The notes beneath the pieces are model-generated. The model saw only the letters and a list, made by a program, of their open reading frames with translations, had not been told where the DNA came from and did not search any database. The position numbers and the translations under genes were made by a program. From IMG/VR virus record IMGVR_UViG_2648501563_000004: a DNA stretch of 41,388 bases. The stretch is one strand, 5' to 3'. Origin of the DNA: a virus. This document shows positions 14,796 to 41,388 of this stretch, in pieces (position 1 is the first letter of the stretch; each line of letters begins with the position of its first letter).

Positions 14796-15662
14796 TTAAG
14801 TTCTGATCTCCCAATACTGACTCGCGGTTTTTCTATATTTGGACACGACATCATCCGAAATATTCAGATCAGTAGTCAGTTGGCGATAATCCACGTTACC
14901 GATTCGAGTTCTTTGGCTGATTTTACATTGCATACACGTTGTGTTTTCCGTAGTCATTTCAATGAGCTTCTGTTTGCTCTTTTCTTCGAGTTCCTTCCAT
15001 CTTTTTGCGCATTCTTTGTTTTGCAAATAGATCATCAGTTGTTCCATATATGGCTGATCGTCTCTATATGTATAATCTCTATCAGACAGTTCAGGCTCAG
15101 TAAAAGTAACGACATTGTTCCAGAAAAGGCGTTCCTGTTCAAGCATGTTCCTAATGTAATCTTCGTTTCTCTTCACTTCAACGATTACCCCGCTTTCCCC
15201 ATCATATGACACATAAAACATTTGTTTTAGACCAGTAACTTCTAGTTGATGCTGAAATTGAGCGTAATATTTTTGTGGAGATTTTCCTAATTTAGCATCT
15301 TCATGTTCTGCTTTACTTCCACATTTAATTTCTACACAAACACCTTGTTCAATATTATAACCATCTAAATTTGCATGAATGAAACTAATGGATTTATGCT
15401 TCAAGAATATAGCAGGAAGATCAACACCTAATTCACGTTCGCACCAATCGCGCGCAAATGGCTCCAGAATAACCCCACGAGACATTGCGCTATTTGTAAA
15501 GTTAGATTCTTTAAGCCCAAGCTTCTCACACCACAGTGTATGCGGAGTTTTGTAGGGAGAATCTCCTAGAATTATTGGGGCGTCCGATGCTCCGATCGAA
15601 TTGGAGCGGTAAAATTTCCAAATTTCTGACCCAGGTTCTAAATGTGTTTCCATGCTTCCCAT
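14796..15662 (-). CDS. YqaJ-like (lambda Exo family) recombination exonuclease
   Basis: WKFYRSNSIGASDAPIILGDSPYKTPHTLWCEKLGL .. AMSRGVILEP .. NLDGY .. VEIKC follows the YqaJ/PD-(D/E)xK pattern. Confidence 0.85.
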   Translation of the reverse strand: MGSMETHLEPGSEIWKFYRSNSIGASDAPIILGDSPYKTPHTLWCEKLGLKESNFTNSAMSRGVILEPFARDWCERELGVDLPAIFLKHKSISFIHANLDGYNIEQGVCVEIKCGSKAEHEDAKLGKSPQKYYAQFQHQLEVTGLKQMFYVSYDGESGVIVEVKRNEDYIRNMLEQERLFWNNVVTFTEPELSDRDYTYRDDQPYMEQLMIYLQNKECAKRWKELEEKSKQKLIEMTTENTTCMQCKISQRTRIGNVDYRQLTTDLNISDDVVSKYRKTASQYWEIRT

Positions 15663-16424: not shown

Positions 16425-17087
16425 CTAAATTAGTAGATCTTTCCATGCTTCACCTCTAACGATCTTTCCAATTTGACCTACCGAAACTCCATATTCCTTT
16501 GCTAAATCTTTCTGAAAAGTTTTTCTTTTTTTATATTTGCTTCTGATTTCAATAATCTGATCTTTAGAAAGTTTTGTATTATGCCTAGCTTTTTCACCTT
16601 GTGTTTGTCTATTTTTATTCAACATATCATTTAAATTTTCATGATAAGTTCCTGTAAATAAATGATCAGGATTGCAACAGATTCTATTATCACATTTATG
16701 ACATACATAAAGACCTTCAGGTATTTTTCCTTTATATATAGTCCAAGAAACTCGATGGCATCTTAAAGTTGATTGTCGATAAGTCATCATTCCATAACCA
16801 GCTTGATCTTTATTTAATTGCCATTCCCAACAACCATTCTCATTAATCCTTATTCGATCAGTAATTCTTTTTTTCAATCGTTCATGATACTTTTCATCTG
16901 GTGGACTTTTTTTACATCCACATGAAACTTGATGATATTTCCCTTTTTCTTTAAAAAGCCTTGTAGAAATTTTATTTCCACATTCGCATTCACATTTCCA
17001 ATAACACCCTAATTTTGTTTCATCAAGGCCTATTACATTTAATAGGCCTATTTTTTTTCCAGTATGATCAATCTTTCTCATTTTCAA
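16425..17087 (-). CDS. HNH homing endonuclease (HNH_3-like) with a C-terminal HTH
   Basis: GCWEWQ..GYG..CHRVSWTIYKGKIPEGLYVCHKCDNRICCNPDHLFTGTYHENLNDM is the HNH_3 signature. The C-terminal KDLAKEYGVSVGQIGKIVRGEAW is an HTH. It is inserted between recT and the downstream genes. Confidence 0.85.
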   Translation of the reverse strand: MKMRKIDHTGKKIGLLNVIGLDETKLGCYWKCECECGNKISTRLFKEKGKYHQVSCGCKKSPPDEKYHERLKKRITDRIRINENGCWEWQLNKDQAGYGMMTYRQSTLRCHRVSWTIYKGKIPEGLYVCHKCDNRICCNPDHLFTGTYHENLNDMLNKNRQTQGEKARHNTKLSKDQIIEIRSKYKKRKTFQKDLAKEYGVSVGQIGKIVRGEAWKDLLI

Positions 17088-17868
17088 TAATATCTTTTTG
17101 TTCAGTTATGTCAATCTGCTTTACATTTGATTCAATTTGCTTCAATGCAGCTAATTTTATTCTTGTGTATGTTTCTTCAGCTATCTGTTCAAAACTATAG
17201 ATATTCATTTTTTCTAGAGTAGTCCATACTTGGTTTTTGTATGATTCAGGACATTGATTAATCAAATAAGCTAACTCATCTACTTTTTCTTTGCTTATAG
17301 TAGTTTTTATTTCTTCAAAATCAGCTTCTTTTGAAATTTGTCTAGGATTATCAATAATTCCGTCTCGAACTTCACCTTCAACATAGCACCCTTTTATTAC
17401 ATCAGGATATAATTGTCGAGCCAATCTTGTTAATGCTCTAGCAAAAAGCATGTCTTCAGCATATTTTTCCCAAACATTTTTATATATACCGGCTTTCTTA
17501 GCGTCTTCTATTGAAAAAGAGCATGTCCACGTATCTCCATTATCAGATCTCTTACCATGTAGAATACAAATCTTAGTGTCTGACTTAGGATCTTTTGTAA
17601 TACTATGACCAGCTCTACGTATTAGATAATTCATAGAATTGGCAGAGAGTTCCACTTTCCCGTTAACATAATACATTGCTCCGCCAACTGCTTCTAAAGG
17701 TGATATTCCTACAGTATGTGCTTTCTGAATTATTGCAAAGATTCCATCCATTCCTAGTTTTGCGTAATGAGGAACACTCATTAACATTTTACACATCTTT
17801 TGCGTACTCTCAATCTGCATCAACGATGCGCTAAAATCATCTTCTCTAACGACCATTTCATTGCTCAT
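17068..17868 (-). CDS. recT: RecT/Red-beta-type single-strand annealing protein
   Basis: GISPLEAVGGAMYYVNGKVELSANSMNYLIRRAGHSI ... WEKYAEDMLFARALTRLARQLYPDVI follows the RecT pattern. A YqaJ exonuclease is in the same operon. Confidence 0.7.
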   Translation of the reverse strand: MSNEMVVREDDFSASLMQIESTQKMCKMLMSVPHYAKLGMDGIFAIIQKAHTVGISPLEAVGGAMYYVNGKVELSANSMNYLIRRAGHSITKDPKSDTKICILHGKRSDNGDTWTCSFSIEDAKKAGIYKNVWEKYAEDMLFARALTRLARQLYPDVIKGCYVEGEVRDGIIDNPRQISKEADFEEIKTTISKEKVDELAYLINQCPESYKNQVWTTLEKMNIYSFEQIAEETYTRIKLAALKQIESNVKQIDITEQKDIIENEKD

Positions 17869-32364: not shown

Positions 32365-32392
32365 TCTCCGTCTCCTATATTGGAGATAAACT

Positions 32393-32500
32393 ATGAGCGG
32401 TCCTACGACCACAAGCATACTTCCGCCAGCTGTACAACAACAGCTATCGATGAAGATGCTTGCTCGTCCTATGCCTGATTTGATTCATACAACCATGGGT
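32393..32500 (+). CDS. Major capsid protein, exon 1 (36 codons)
   Basis: GGAG RBS. MSGPTTTSILPPAVQQQLSMKMLARPMPDLIHTTMG resembles N4-gp56/HK97-fold capsid N-termini. The frame hits TAA at 32501, which is the first intron base. Confidence 0.8.
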
Positions 32501-33196
32501 TAAATATAGGGGTAGCCCATTTAAAATTTGGCTATTTGCTGGAAACTCCTAAAGCTTTCTGGTACACTGTTATTGACCGACAATAACATTGTAAAAATCC
32601 AGGAGATATATGGACAATCAGCAGCGAAGACTAGAAAAGGATAAAGCATGGTTCGCGGGAATCATGGAAGGAGAAGGTTCTTTTACTCTTGTTAAAGGTA
32701 AAAGGATTGATAAAGGTGAAGTAATTTACCGTTATATTCCTTCTTGTTGTGTAAGCAACACTGATCCAATGCTTATGAAAGAACTTGAAAGGATACTTAT
32801 AGAAAATGAGATCGACTTTAAGACTTATTATAGAGGTAAAAGACAGCCTACACATAAAGAAAGCTGGCAATTACATATAATTGGTATGAAGAGAAGTATC
32901 AAATTCATATCTTGGATAATTGATGAGTTAAGATGTGAAAAAAAAGTGAAAGCCCAAAAGATTTTGGAATTCTGCAAGATTAGAGATGAACAAATGACAG
33001 GATTTCACGGAATAAGATACAACGATAAAGAGTTAATCCTTTGTGAAGAAATAAGAGGCATTCAAAATTCTAGAACGCTCAACGACTATACGCCAAACGC
33101 CGAAAGGTGATGATATAGTCTGAACATACGCGAGAGCGTATGAGAGGGGAATAACAAGACCCTCCGCCTCGTAAGAGGTCATAAAAGTAACAGATG
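32501..33196 (+). mobile_element. Group I intron 1 (696 nt) with a sense-strand LAGLIDADG homing endonuclease gene
   Basis: P1 pairs AUGGGU (32495-500) with GCCCAU (32515-20), with a U.G wobble at the splice site. P10 pairs GGGGUA (32509-14) with UACCCC (33197-202). Omega-G is at 33196. The core has AACGACTA (33081) and ATAGTCTGAAC (33115), plus GNRA-capped helices. The 3' core resembles the T4 td intron as I remember it. Confidence 0.8.
32610..33110 (+). CDS. LAGLIDADG homing endonuclease (166 aa, single-motif type), intron 1-encoded
   Basis: WFAGIMEGEGSF is a LAGLIDADG motif. AGGAG RBS at 32601. The 3' end overlaps conserved intron core sequence. Confidence 0.85.
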   Translation: MDNQQRRLEKDKAWFAGIMEGEGSFTLVKGKRIDKGEVIYRYIPSCCVSNTDPMLMKELERILIENEIDFKTYYRGKRQPTHKESWQLHIIGMKRSIKFISWIIDELRCEKKVKAQKILEFCKIRDEQMTGFHGIRYNDKELILCEEIRGIQNSRTLNDYTPNAER

Positions 33197-33487
33197 TACC
33201 CCATAACGATGGATCAACAGGCCGGAGATATCCTACGTAGACGTAGATATCAAAACCTTGCTACAGCACCAGTGCCACTTGGCAATGGTATTGTAGACCC
33301 GCCAGCGCAACAATTAGTTGCTTTGGACATAGATGCTAGAATTGATTGGTATGGTACGTATTTAATACTTCAAGAGCAAGTGATGCTCATAAATGAGGAT
33401 CCGGTCCTCAATAGCGCTGTAAGCGTATTAGGACAGTCTCTTCGAGAAACTGAAGATCAGCTAGCGCGTTCGATGATGGAAGGGGGT
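33197..33487 (+). CDS. Major capsid protein, exon 2 (97 codons)
   Basis: YPITMDQQAGDILRRRRYQNLATAPVPLGNG...IDWYGTYLILQEQVMLINEDPVLNSAVSVLGQSLRETEDQLARSMMEGG follows the capsid pattern (..f.R...l......l.eG; yG.y..l.d.....a.dpvl......lg.q..et.D.l.r). It is in frame with exons 1 and 3. Confidence 0.8.
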
Positions 33488-33540
33488 AAAATGTGTGCTC
33501 CCGTTAAATCTTGGGTGATTGACTTGGAAATCCTAGCTGC

Positions 33541-33993
33541 TTAATCAGTAGGAAGACAAGGCGGAACTGTTAGACCACGTTGATTAAGAGGTTTTATGCG
33601 TTCATATAGTGATTTACGATATTCAGCAGTTTCTTTTGAGATAGGACATTCTCTTTTCAAAAAAGATTCTTTGAATTTAATTGCTATTTCGCATTGTTCC
33701 TTTTTAGAAACTAAAAATGGAAGGAGATTACGCAAAACTTCGAGGCATTCATTATTTTGAAGTCTCCAAACATAAGTTGTTTTCCAGTTAATCTTAGTTG
33801 ATCGACTGGCAGAAGTTATAGGACGGCTATAGCCGCCAATATTGGTTTCTAACCAATCTATCAACTTCTTACAATTATTGTAGACTTCAAATGTGAGATA
33901 ATGACGATTCAATCTCTTATAATGAAAGATTGAGATTGTTCCTTCTCCATCAATAATGCCGGCTAAATAAGCGTATTTTTCAATATGATTCAT
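33541..33993 (-). CDS. LAGLIDADG homing endonuclease (150 aa, single-motif type), encoded antisense within intron 2
   Basis: YLAGIIDGEGTISIF is a LAGLIDADG motif. GAGGT RBS. It has its own promoter at 34016-34044. Confidence 0.85.
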   Translation of the reverse strand: MNHIEKYAYLAGIIDGEGTISIFHYKRLNRHYLTFEVYNNCKKLIDWLETNIGGYSRPITSASRSTKINWKTTYVWRLQNNECLEVLRNLLPFLVSKKEQCEIAIKFKESFLKRECPISKETAEYRKSLYERIKPLNQRGLTVPPCLPTD

Positions 33994-34015
33994 GTTTACC
34001 TCATGGTTGGTGAGA

Positions 34016-34044
34016 ATAATAACATTTTAGTGAAATAGAGTCAA
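34016..34044 (-). promoter_or_regulatory. Near-consensus sigma70 promoter for the antisense homing endonuclease gene
   Basis: On the minus strand: TTGACT (complement of 34039-44), a 17-nt spacer, TATTAT (complement of 34016-21). It lies about 22 nt upstream of the ATG at 33993. Confidence 0.55.
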
Positions 34045-34183
34045 CAAACTAATAGACCGTGAACGACTAAGTCCCGAGACACCCGAAAGGGTGAAGCGAT
34101 AGTCTGAACTCTATGGTAACATAGAGAGGGAGATCCGAAGAGGTTTCCCCGCCTAGAAATAGGTCACAAAAGTAACAGAACTG

Positions 34184-34747
34184 GCACCTCCAATTAATTG
34201 TACCTCTGGTACTAATGGAGACAATCCTACGAATATCAGTGCATTAGACTGTAGCAAAGCCGTTCGCTTATTGCGTACAGCAAACGCTCAGTTCATTATG
34301 GACTTGATCGAAGGGGAAAATAAGTTCGGAACAGCCCCTGTGCGTACATGCTTCTTTGGCCTGACTCATACAAATTTGAGTGCAGACTTAGATCAGTTGG
34401 CTGGTTTTCAGAACGTTAGCCAGTATTCGAATACAGCTAACTTGCTTATGGCCGAGTGGGGAACAATTAGAAACATTCGTTTCTTGTTGTCTTCAGTAGG
34501 TAGTATTAGTGTTGCAGCTTCTGCAAATGGTCAGGATGTGTATAACATATTCCTACCAGGACAAGAAAGCTATGATATGGTTGATTTGGACGGCTATAGC
34601 GCCCAATTCATCTATGCACCGCCAGAGATTGCTTCACCTCGCTTGAGATTGTATCAAACAGCAGGTTGGAAGATGGCGCAAGTGTTCAACATCACGAACA
34701 CATCTTGGATCGTAAACCTACGCTGCACTCTTGCAGTGGCAATTTAA
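34184..34747 (+). CDS. Major capsid protein, exon 3 (187 codons plus stop)
   Basis: The frame is open from 34181. APPINCTSG...AVRLLRTANAQF...TCFFGLTH...YQTAGWKMAQVF is the C-terminal part of a capsid-like protein. The ORF track shows only the part from the internal TTG at 34271. Confidence 0.8.
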   Translation, partial: APPINCTSGTNGDNPTNISALDCSKAVRLLRTANAQFIMDLIEGENKFGTAPVRTCFFGLTHTNLSADLDQLAGFQNVSQYSNTANLLMAEWGTIRNIRFLLSSVGSISVAASANGQDVYNIFLPGQESYDMVDLDGYSAQFIYAPPEIASPRLRLYQTAGWKMAQVFNITNTSWIVNLRCTLAVAI

Positions 34748-39792: not shown

Positions 39793-41388
39793 ATGACAGC
39801 ACAAACATTCCTAGTAGGTCCAATTAAAGACGGTATCCGGAGAGATATTAAACCATTCGCAACGCCGGAAGACTCATTTGAAACAATGATAAATGCCTTT
39901 CAATATCGTGGAAGAATAAAACGCAGATTAGGATATACCAAATTAGGAAGACTTGCCAATGGAACTCCTGTCATGGGTCTTAGAACATGGGAAAACTTCG
40001 GTATTGGTGTCCAAACTCTAGTCGCTTTCGATTTAACAGATGCTTATCAATGGAATGGAACTACATTTATATCTCTCCCAACTATTATGCCTGTTGTATG
40101 GTCAGGAACTGATTACAACTTCTTTTATACCATAAACTATGCCAATGCTCTATGGGTCACTAATTCTAAATCTGGTCTTAATGGATTTGCAGTCACTAAT
40201 TTTACTGGTCAAGCGGGCGCTGGACCTTGGACAGTTCAGGTAACATCAGCAGGCAACACATTTCAAATAGGCGATCAGGTCTATTTTCTGAATGTCACAG
40301 GTGGAGCAGCAGCGAATAATTTAAGACAGGCTATCGTTACAGTTGCCGGAAACCCTTTTACTGTATCTGCGTCAACAGGTGGACCTTTTACAAATGGGGT
40401 GGCCAATAGCGGAATGGCACTATCGACAACAAGAACAGTATCGGGTCAGGACGGAATTCGCTATTATGGACAACTGGATAATGGTACAGGATGGGCAAAC
40501 TACAATCCTCCGATAGACCCTAATAATGCACTCGCTGGATGTTTATTGATGTTTTCTTATCGTGGTTATTTGGTCTTCTTAAATACCACAGAAGGGAACG
40601 ACGCAGGAGTACAGAATTTCCCTAATAGGGCTAGATGGACTGAAATAGGAACGCCTTATTATTCTGAGCCTGTTCCATCACTTCCTAATTTACAATCTAT
40701 TGACCCTAAAGCTGCTAGAGATGACTTATTTGGAAGAGGCGGAGCAAATGACGCACCTACAGATGAAATCATCGTGGGAGCCGCTTTTATCCGAGATATC
40801 CTCATTGTTTATTTCGAACGTTCCACGTGGAGACTCCGCTTTGTTAATAATAGCCAGAATCCTTTTGTTTGGGAACGTGTTAACGTAGAACTTGGATCAG
40901 ATTGCACCTTTAGTACAATTGTATTTGATAAAGGCCTTATGGCTATTGGAAATCGAGGTATTGTCATTAGTGATGGTAATGATACCATACGATTTGATGA
41001 GAAAATTCCAGATGAAATATTCGATATTGCACAGTCTAATAATGGTCTACAGCGTGTTTATGGAATTCGAACCTTTAGAACACGGTTGAATTTTTGGACT
41101 TTTCGAAGTGCTGATGCAACGAGCGAAACATATCCAAATCAGGTTTTAGTATTTAACTACAACGAAAAAACATGGTCAATATTTGATGACAGTTTTACTT
41201 GTTTTGGATATTACTACAATAGCGGAACAGGTTTAACTTGGAACGATCTCCCAAATCGATGGGATTCATATACGACAATTAGTTGGGATAGTGGAGTATC
41301 GCAAGAAGGTTATGAGAATATAGTGGCTGGAAATCAACAAGGTTATGTGTTAGTGCTTGAACAAGGTATCCAAAACGATCCTTCTTTA
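39793..41388 (+). CDS. Large virion protein, N-terminal part (532 codons, runs off the window end and continues at 3..992); nozzle/tail-tubular-B-like
   Basis: Hand translation from the ATG at 39793 shows no stop through 41388. It is absent from the ORF track only because there is no stop in the window. It contains FQIGDQVYFLNVTGGAAANNLRQAIVTVAGNPFTVSAS, a beta-barrel motif. Confidence 0.8.
   Translation, partial: MTAQTFLVGPIKDGIRRDIKPFATPEDSFETMINAFQYRGRIKRRLGYTKLGRLANGTPVMGLRTWENFGIGVQTLVAFDLTDAYQWNGTTFISLPTIMPVVWSGTDYNFFYTINYANALWVTNSKSGLNGFAVTNFTGQAGAGPWTVQVTSAGNTFQIGDQVYFLNVTGGAAANNLRQAIVTVAGNPFTVSASTGGPFTNGVANSGMALSTTRTVSGQDGIRYYGQLDNGTGWANYNPPIDPNNALAGCLLMFSYRGYLVFLNTTEGNDAGVQNFPNRARWTEIGTPYYSEPVPSLPNLQSIDPKAARDDLFGRGGANDAPTDEIIVGAAFIRDILIVYFERSTWRLRFVNNSQNPFVWERVNVELGSDCTFSTIVFDKGLMAIGNRGIVISDGNDTIRFDEKIPDEIFDIAQSNNGLQRVYGIRTFRTRLNFWTFRSADATSETYPNQVLVFNYNEKTWSIFDDSFTCFGYYYNSGTGLTWNDLPNRWDSYTTISWDSGVSQEGYENIVAGNQQGYVLVLEQGIQNDPSL
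41288..41388. repeat. Terminal direct repeat copy B (exact duplicate of 1..101)
   Basis: Identical 101-bp string at both window ends. Confidence 0.95.

Follow-up and report, generated by a model that had tools for sequence, protein, structure and literature searches.

The 41,388-nucleotide (nt) stretch of viral DNA in IMG/VR record IMGVR_UViG_2648501563_000004 (the window) carries a gene for a capsid protein of the N4-gp56 family which, with a probability of about 0.92, is interrupted by two mobile group I introns of a single family, each with a LAGLIDADG gene in the loop L6. The direct basis for this reading is the anatomy of the introns, the colinearity of the exons with uninterrupted homologues, the covariation of the helices, and the identities of the endonucleases and of the capsid protein. 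The original prediction for this region, a major capsid protein gene split by two homologous group I introns, is upheld by the colinearity, the anatomy and the covariation, together with sub-threshold matches to the Rfam group I model in the right places. It had missed the LAGLIDADG homing-endonuclease gene in each intron, one of which is antisense.

Exons and the joined capsid protein

The gene consists of the following parts.

32393–32500, + strand: capsid exon 1, 108 nt, 36 codons; ribosome-binding site (RBS) GGAG at 32382–32385; the last six nucleotides, ATGGGT, are the 5' strand of P1
32501–33196, + strand: intron 1, group I, 696 nt
33197–33487, + strand: capsid exon 2, 291 nt, 97 codons
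33488–34183, + strand: intron 2, group I, 696 nt
34184–34747, + strand: capsid exon 3, 564 nt, 187 codons and stop

The first capsid open reading frame (ORF; 32393–32503) stops after 36 codons, and the capsid frame picks up at 33197 and then at 34184, exactly at the predicted coordinates. Each of the exon lengths is a multiple of three and all exons are in frame, and the excision of the two inserts gives a joined protein of 320 amino acids (aa), the gene being interrupted between codons 36|37 and 133|134. A protein search with the joined sequence returns 1180 relatives, including uninterrupted proteins of 319–320 aa. The spliced protein is 84–92% identical to the uninterrupted homologues P0001–P0009 and colinear with them, without a gap at either junction (HTTMG|YPITMDQQ and SMMEGG|APPINC), which agrees with the frame-preserving splices and the 320-aa product claimed earlier. 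Its predicted junction-spanning peptides are HTTMGYPITMD and SMMEGGAPPINC. At the intron-less locus L001, the coding DNA has the same length (963 nt) and aligns without gaps at 75% identity.

The identity as a major capsid protein, also part of the original prediction, is borne out by a match to phrog_1357 'major head protein' (expect value (E) 2.8e-29) in one stretch over residues 5–313. Some homologues carry the source name 'N4-gp56 family major capsid protein', and a tblastn search with the capsid protein matches annotated capsid proteins. The window protein scores 19 bits against Pfam Phage_capsid_4, under the cut-off of 27 bits. Because a sequence search of PDB gave one spurious weak match only, the fold search was made with a model of P0001, a homologue of 92% identity (predicted local distance difference test (pLDDT) 74, predicted template modelling (TM) score 0.72). 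This model matches the capsids of N4, Shigella phages B2 and Moo19, Pseudomonas phage DEV and HK97, with TM scores of ~0.7 and E values down to 7e-20. The model supports the assignment of the gene product as an HK97-fold major capsid protein of the N4-gp56 family.

Intron 1 ends in an ATG (33194–33196) that is in frame with exon 2, and ORF finders therefore call a spurious 116-aa gene at 33194–33544. This ATG is without a Shine-Dalgarno (SD) sequence and is not conserved in the orthologous introns. More generally, gene callers fragment the capsid gene, and the databases hold many 'capsid' pieces of 188–285 aa from its relatives; when the introns are recognised, a single 320-aa capsid protein is restored in the annotation.

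Ribozyme cores and the intron family

In both window introns a U precedes the 5' splice site (a U.G pair in P1) and a G ends the intron, and the P3/P7 pseudoknot and the P4–P6 domain are present. The elements are listed below; P3 to P9b are fully paired in both introns.

32495–32500 with 32515–32520, +: intron 1 P1, ATGGGT with GCCCAT (internal guide sequence, IGS), 6/6 paired
32509–32514 with 33197–33202, +: intron 1 P10, GGGGTA with TACCCC, 6/6 paired
32527–32532 with 33092–33097, +: intron 1 P3
32537–32542 with 32618–32623, +: intron 1 P4
32546–32549 with 32602–32605, +: intron 1 P5
32624–32626 with 33076–33078, +: intron 1 P6
33084–33088 with 33116–33120, +: intron 1 P7
33098–33109, +: intron 1 P8
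33125–33142, +: intron 1 P9
33144–33164, +: intron 1 P9a
33167–33178, +: intron 1 P9b
33196, +: intron 1 terminal G (omega-G)
33482–33487 with 33497–33502, +: intron 2 P1, GGGGGT with GCTCCC (IGS), 6/6 paired
33493–33496 with 34184–34187, +: intron 2 P10, GTGT with GCAC, 4/4 paired
33510–33515 with 34073–34078, +: intron 2 P3
33523–33526 with 33557–33560, +: intron 2 P4
33531–33535 with 33549–33553, +: intron 2 P5
33562–33564 with 34057–34059, +: intron 2 P6
34065–34069 with 34100–34104, +: intron 2 P7
34080–34093, +: intron 2 P8
34109–34126, +: intron 2 P9
34128–34149, +: intron 2 P9a
34152–34163, +: intron 2 P9b
34183, +: intron 2 terminal G (omega-G)

The boundaries, P1, P10 and last bases of both introns are exactly those of the original prediction. 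The edges of intron 1 may slide by at most 2 nt (TA|TA) with the same resulting protein; the position given here is chosen because it alone combines a 5' exon ending in U with an intron ending in G. Two core strings reported as shared, AACGACTA and ATAGTCTGAAC, are present in both inserts, and the GNRA-capped hairpins described with them are found as well (CATACGC-GAGA-GCGTATG versus CTCTATG-GTAA-CATAGAG, and CCTC-GTAA-GAGG versus CCTA-GAAA-TAGG). Between the two introns the 3' cores are 67% identical. Minimum free energy folds of the ORF-deleted introns recover P1 and P4–P9b, with z = -5.2 for intron 1 and -3.7 for intron 2, and no mutation disrupting P7 or P3 was found in either intron. The cores are small, with short P5 and P6. 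A helix between P1 and P3 (P2) is absent in both window introns, as are P7.1 and P7.2, and the interval from P3' to P7' consists of a single hairpin (P8) in 26–29 nt. Group II introns are ruled out by the lack of a reverse transcriptase and by the group I anatomy. The equal length of the two introns, which had been noted as a curiosity, is exact but coincidental, because orthologous introns vary widely in length (196–718 nt at the first site and 360–779 nt at the second); the search for a meaning in it is rejected.

On this anatomy, each intron in the late transcript would fold into a P3–P9 ribozyme core, with the internal guide pairing to the last six exon nucleotides and presenting the U.G of P1 at the splice site. 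Exogenous guanosine would attack the 5' splice site, after which the freed exon, kept in place by P1 and P10, would attack behind the terminal G, and in-frame ligation of the exons would produce the messenger RNA of the 320-aa capsid protein. Capsid synthesis, and hence virion yield, would depend on two such ribozyme reactions.

A scan of IMG/VR yielded 79 loci encoding close relatives of the window capsid protein. About 15 of the 79 are uninterrupted, and the rest are interrupted at no fewer than ten nucleotide positions of the 963-nt capsid coding sequence (CDS), namely 108, 235, 262, 293, 315, 353, 399, 435, 546 and 645. Up to four introns occur in one capsid gene (for example, in L059 and L053), their lengths range from 196 nt (ORF-less) to ~1220 nt, and their endonuclease cargo lies in either orientation, has one or two motifs, or is missing altogether. 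The two-intron arrangement of the window is also found in L055, L057, L058, L061 and L062, which come from independent metagenomes. The same core is present in all the inserts, which are therefore assigned to one intron family. Inteins are ruled out by the in-frame stops in the inserts and by the occurrence of all three codon phases across the sites.

Membership in this family was tested by nhmmer searches and by the counting of pairs. Hidden Markov models (HMMs) built solely from introns of the relatives pick out precisely these two inserts in the 41-kb window and no other place; the E values are 3e-18 and 3.5e-16 with the 3' core models, and 4e-9 and 4e-7 with those of the 5' cores. P1 was scored from protein-defined exon ends and P3 without an alignment, because MAFFT misregisters the 3' strand of P3 and the exon strand of P1 between subfamilies. 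The guide sequence differs by site and pairs with the local exon (ATGGGT/GCCCAT, GCAGGT/GCCTGC, GACCCT/GGGGTC, AACGGT/GCCGTT and TTCGGT/GCCGAA). The pairing of P1 with the intron's own exon is 6/6 in 72 of 73 introns, with the U.G wobble in all 73, and none of the cross-site combinations of guide and exon in the same set reaches 6/6. Nearly all of the related introns obey the U...G rule. P3 has 32 different 5' strands, and the longest run of pairs with its own partner is 7 in 55 of the 73 introns; on average, this run is 6.6 long with own partners versus 4.9 with cross partners.

The covariation of the remaining helices was assessed in an alignment of 38 ORF-deleted introns. From this alignment RNAalifold independently predicts P4, P6, P7, P9 and P9a, with compensatory changes in 25 of 28 pairs. 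Paired cells make up 90.0% of the total versus 68.0% in shuffles, and the covariation score is 0.550 versus 0.158, neither value being equalled in any of 500 shuffles; double-change cells number 241 versus 83. Controls in which the register is slid by 1–3 columns are 32–46% paired. P7 occurs in six compensated variants (GACTA/TAGTC, GACTG/CAGTC, GAGCA/TGCTC, GAGTA/TACTC, GACTT/AAGTC and GAACA/TGTTC).

The exon flanks of the two window sites (site 108, 32489–32500/33197–33208; site 399, 33476–33487/34184–34195) were also compared among alleles. The flanks are GGGGGT|GCACC in 11 of 11 intron-bearing alleles at site 399 and ATGGGT|TA in all intron-bearing alleles at site 108. In the uninterrupted alleles synonymous variation is free at both flanks, often with C or A replacing the U of the P1 wobble. 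The fixed flanks fit a pairing requirement of P1 and P10, co-conversion during homing, or both.

These observations bear on the idea that the gene is truly fragmented by the insertion of endonuclease genes, its pieces being translated apart and assembled without RNA splicing. Split genes that flank free-standing endonuclease genes are known in T4-like phages and provide a precedent for this idea, and within the window the in-frame ATG immediately before exon 2 speaks for it. Endonuclease elements of this kind have been reviewed (PMC2988022). That ATG, however, lacks the SD sequence and conservation noted above, with relatives' introns ending in ..ACTG, ..ATAG or ..TACG, and exon 3 begins without a start codon or an RBS. 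Moreover, a covarying ribozyme core and exon-matched guides would be needless for simple gene insertion, and inserts without any ORF occur. Fragmentation without splicing is thus very improbable, and the inserts are treated here as introns.

The wider family provides a more interesting result than the window itself: one intron family is found at ten or more sites of the capsid gene, with its guide changed and its endonuclease cargo varied. A tentative reading, to which slightly less than an even chance is given, is that the capsid gene acts, in one clade of ~40-kb phages, as a hot spot at which this family has occupied these sites by retargeting of the guide and swapping of ribozyme-core and endonuclease modules, with some chimeric forms. 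Should these events be both recent and frequent, the spread of group I introns to new sites in phage populations could be observed in nature in this clade, with reverse splicing and endonuclease-driven ectopic insertion as candidate routes. The family is also a source of compact ribozymes (~200 nt) with naturally retargeted guides, and of small LAGLIDADG enzymes whose targets differ within a single gene.

Introns of chimeric look are seen in L075 (3215–4000, site 546) and L060 (1576–2354, site 399). Each has a 5' segment of the resident type, comprising the guide sequence and the 5' strands of P3 and P4; P3, P4 and P5 then occur a second time, and an endonuclease gene and a 3' core like that of window intron 1 come after them. 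This structure suggests either that core and endonuclease module have been replaced or that one intron is nested in another. The site-315 introns of L036, L048, L049, L068 and L069 are large (1190–1223 nt) and contain double-motif LAGLIDADG ORFs of 314–339 aa; they share the family 3' core, and their 5' ends show no obvious exon-complementary guide near the splice site. These five introns were left out of the statistics.

Endonuclease genes in loop L6

The features inside the introns are as follows.

32610–33110, + strand: intron-1 homing-endonuclease gene, 166 aa, single-motif LAGLIDADG, loop L6, sense
33541–33993, - strand: intron-2 homing-endonuclease gene, 150 aa, single-motif LAGLIDADG of I-CreI/I-MsoI type, loop L6, antisense
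34016–34044, - strand: sigma-70-like promoter candidate for the antisense endonuclease gene, TTGACT, 17 nt, TG-n-TATTAT (extended -10)

The LAGLIDADG motifs of the pair are AGIIDGEG and AGIMEGEG. In the family of the intron-1 endonuclease, Pfam LAGLIDADG_3 is matched by 8 of 8 members, and the family profile matches I-PanMI and I-OnuI at about E 1e-7; LAGLIDADG_1 is matched by 5 of 7 endonuclease family members. The profile of the intron-2 family matches I-CreI and I-MsoI over residues 5–113 (E 1e-7 to 4e-15), and the intron-2 protein matches phrog_5046 (E 1.5e-18). Orthologues of the intron-1 endonuclease are found at the same site in 7 loci (43–91% identity), while those of the intron-2 endonuclease, at the same site and also antisense, are found in L055 and L062 (74% aa identity) and L061 (53%). 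With pN/pS (nonsynonymous to synonymous change) of 0.07–0.47, the antisense gene is a real gene under purifying selection. Both proteins are presumably homodimeric single-motif LAGLIDADG homing endonucleases, for which target cleavage is predicted.

Both genes extend into the ribozyme core. The SD sequence of the intron-1 gene (AGGAG, 32601–32605) and its start codon lie inside P5, and the last ~35 nt of the gene (33076–33110, ..LNDYTPNAER*) run through P6', P7 and P3' into P8. The translation start of the td endonuclease of phage T4 is sequestered in RNA structure; by analogy, the burial of SD and start codon in P5 should curb translation of this sense-read gene from the folded precursor RNA. 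The C-terminal codons of the antisense gene (33541–33568, ..PPCLPTD*, with PPCLP conserved) are the reverse complement of P6, P4' and P5'. Its SD sequence, GAGG, precedes the start codon by 5 nt, and it would be expressed apparently from its own promoter, for which 34016–34044 is the candidate, with a 10/12 match to the consensus. The position and the hexamers of this candidate are conserved, with TTGACT..TATGAT in L055 and L062 and TTGCAT-17-TATAAT, nearer to the consensus, in L061.

In mixed infections, each LAGLIDADG endonuclease would cut the intron-less capsid alleles of co-infecting relatives, and recombinational repair would then copy the intron into the cut allele. The two endonucleases would thereby favour transmission of the intron-bearing capsid allele.

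Contrary evidence, known systems and genome

Several results weigh against the interpretation as two group I introns with endonuclease genes. The splicing of both introns is inferred from sequence. The check proposed with the original prediction, a search with Rfam Intron_gpI (RF00028), failed: in the whole window nothing reaches the gathering score of 50 bits, the best score being 31.9 bits. The same model finds no match, even at E ≤ 1, in the compact relatives of 196–204 nt (L022 and L071). Family-wide support for P10 is weak, with a mean longest run of 3.66 for own versus 2.91 for cross-site partners. The intron-1 endonuclease scores 20.2 bits against Pfam LAGLIDADG_3, below the cut-off of 22.5 bits, the intron-2 endonuclease alone has no Pfam match at curated cut-offs, and the count of promoter-like sites such as 34016–34044 in the region is not above chance.

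At relaxed thresholds RF00028 gives three matches on the + strand, 32476–32761 (31.9 bits), 32896–33142 (30.4) and 33981–34126 (28.9), with E values of 8e-6 to 6e-5; they correspond to the 5' half of intron 1, the 3' half of intron 1 and the 3' half of intron 2. The matches are fragmented because the long ORFs in loop L6 split them. When 18 related loci were searched at the gathering threshold, only two tRNAs were returned. It seems that RF00028 is insensitive to this intron lineage.

The weak fit to RF00028 and the small core, with no P2 and with short P5 and P6, are also what may be expected of group I introns that are not autonomous and whose splicing in vivo needs a protein, either their own LAGLIDADG protein as a maturase or a host factor. 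Some LAGLIDADG proteins are maturases, and one of them, I-AniI, is among the PDB matches of both endonuclease profiles. However, ORF-less introns of 196–402 nt, with intact exons, occur at the same two sites in L022, L029, L056, L057 and L058, and a cis-encoded maturase is therefore unnecessary. The general ability of compact bacterial and phage group I introns of ~200 nt to self-splice likewise counts against such dependence, which is considered unlikely.

The sub-threshold Rfam score could also be taken to mean that the introns are decayed, splicing-dead relics and that the genome is that of a defective phage or an assembly artefact, the more so as the sequence is metagenomic and the viability of the phage is a presumption. 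Against this, every helix is intact, as noted for P7 and P3, neither endonuclease ORF is broken and purifying selection acts on the antisense one, the same two-intron layout recurs in the five independently sampled loci named above, and the exons are 100% open and 84–94% identical to intron-less alleles. Decay is accordingly rated as having only a very small chance, and functional introns remain the preferred reading.

The window introns are a well-supported new example of a known phenomenon and leave current understanding unchanged, since capsid introns and antisense LAGLIDADG ORFs have already been published. In mycobacteriophage LittleE (Cluster J; Pope et al. 2013, PMC3706429), splicing of the capsid intron was shown by reverse transcription PCR and N-terminal sequencing, and the 819-bp intron contains a LAGLIDADG-like ORF on the bottom strand. 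In both systems the major capsid gene has a group I-type intron that ends in G and follows a U-terminated 5' exon, an antisense LAGLIDADG-like ORF lies within an intron, and close relatives have intron-less alleles. In contrast to LittleE, a siphovirus of a high-GC host with one intron and demonstrated splicing, the window has two introns, predicted to splice, a GC content of 37%, a P22-like portal and an N4-gp56-type capsid. A capsid-gene intron is also known in lactococcal phage Tuc2009.

The likeness to the T4 td intron that had been put forward in the original prediction holds in part, being real in sequence for the P7 strands only. These strands and their flanks are the same in td and in the window introns (AACGACTAT ... 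GATATAGTCTG); a P9 hairpin of GNRA type follows directly, and in both cases the endonuclease ORF lies in the P6 loop. However, td, of subgroup IA2, has P2 and ~63 nt (P7.1/P7.2/P8) between P3' and P7', whereas the window introns have 26–29 nt with P8 only; with neither P2 nor P7.1/P7.2 and with this short interval, they are therefore not IA2. The td endonuclease I-TevI is of the GIY-YIG type, in contrast to the LAGLIDADG enzymes of the window. The family HMM gives E 0.13 for td and 0.022 for the nrdB intron, and T4 is absent among the blastn matches of the window introns.

Distant blastn matches consist of short core segments inside the terminase gene of AR9 and PBS1, a CDS annotated as joined from 5 pieces; the 3' core of window intron 2 is 89% identical to an AR9 terminase intron over 37 nt. 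In the Jug jumbo gut phages, each genome has about 18 small group I introns (PMC12880540). The AR9/PBS1 terminase, Twort orf142 (3 introns) and the Jug phages resemble the present case in the presence of multiple related group I introns in an essential late gene and of compact ORF-less forms of ~200 nt. They are large myoviruses or jumbo phages, whereas the window is a 41-kb genome with introns confined to the capsid gene, both with an endonuclease gene. In Clostridium phage phiCP13O (JF767208.1; L084), an unannotated stretch at 2468–2565 matches the family 3' core (nhmmer E 1.6e-6; blastn 85% over 47 nt) and is flanked by two CDS named 'phage-related minor tail protein'; judged by its sequence, it is likely to be a group I intron that splits a tail gene and was missed in annotation.

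Antisense endonuclease genes are also described in group I introns of nuclear ribosomal DNA, for example at position L2066 (PMC9548176). There too the gene is opposite to the ribozyme and the host gene, and it therefore needs its own expression signals. Those genes encode eukaryotic His-Cys box enzymes and have spliceosomal introns and polyadenylation, in contrast to the window gene with its bacterial-type LAGLIDADG product, SD sequence and sigma-70-like promoter candidate.

The window is probably a complete or near-complete phage genome of ~41.3 kb. Its first ~101 nt (1–101) are repeated exactly at 41288–41388, which points to a terminal repeat or else to the overlap of a circular assembly. 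The GC content is 37.1% for the whole window, 44–48% for the capsid exons and 36% for the introns. A megablast search of the region against GenBank phages gave no match, and no further member of the intron family or LAGLIDADG gene was found elsewhere in the window. Upstream of the capsid gene are genes for a terminase and a P22-like portal and a scaffold-like ORF. ORFs for a RecE-like exonuclease and a RecT-like annealing protein (14796–15662 and 17068–17868, both on the - strand) could serve the double-strand-break repair of intron homing. The whole window is free of tRNA genes according to ARAGORN; in L052 (6867–6938, - strand) and L080 (6963–7034, - strand), a tRNA gene lies ~2 kb downstream of the capsid gene.

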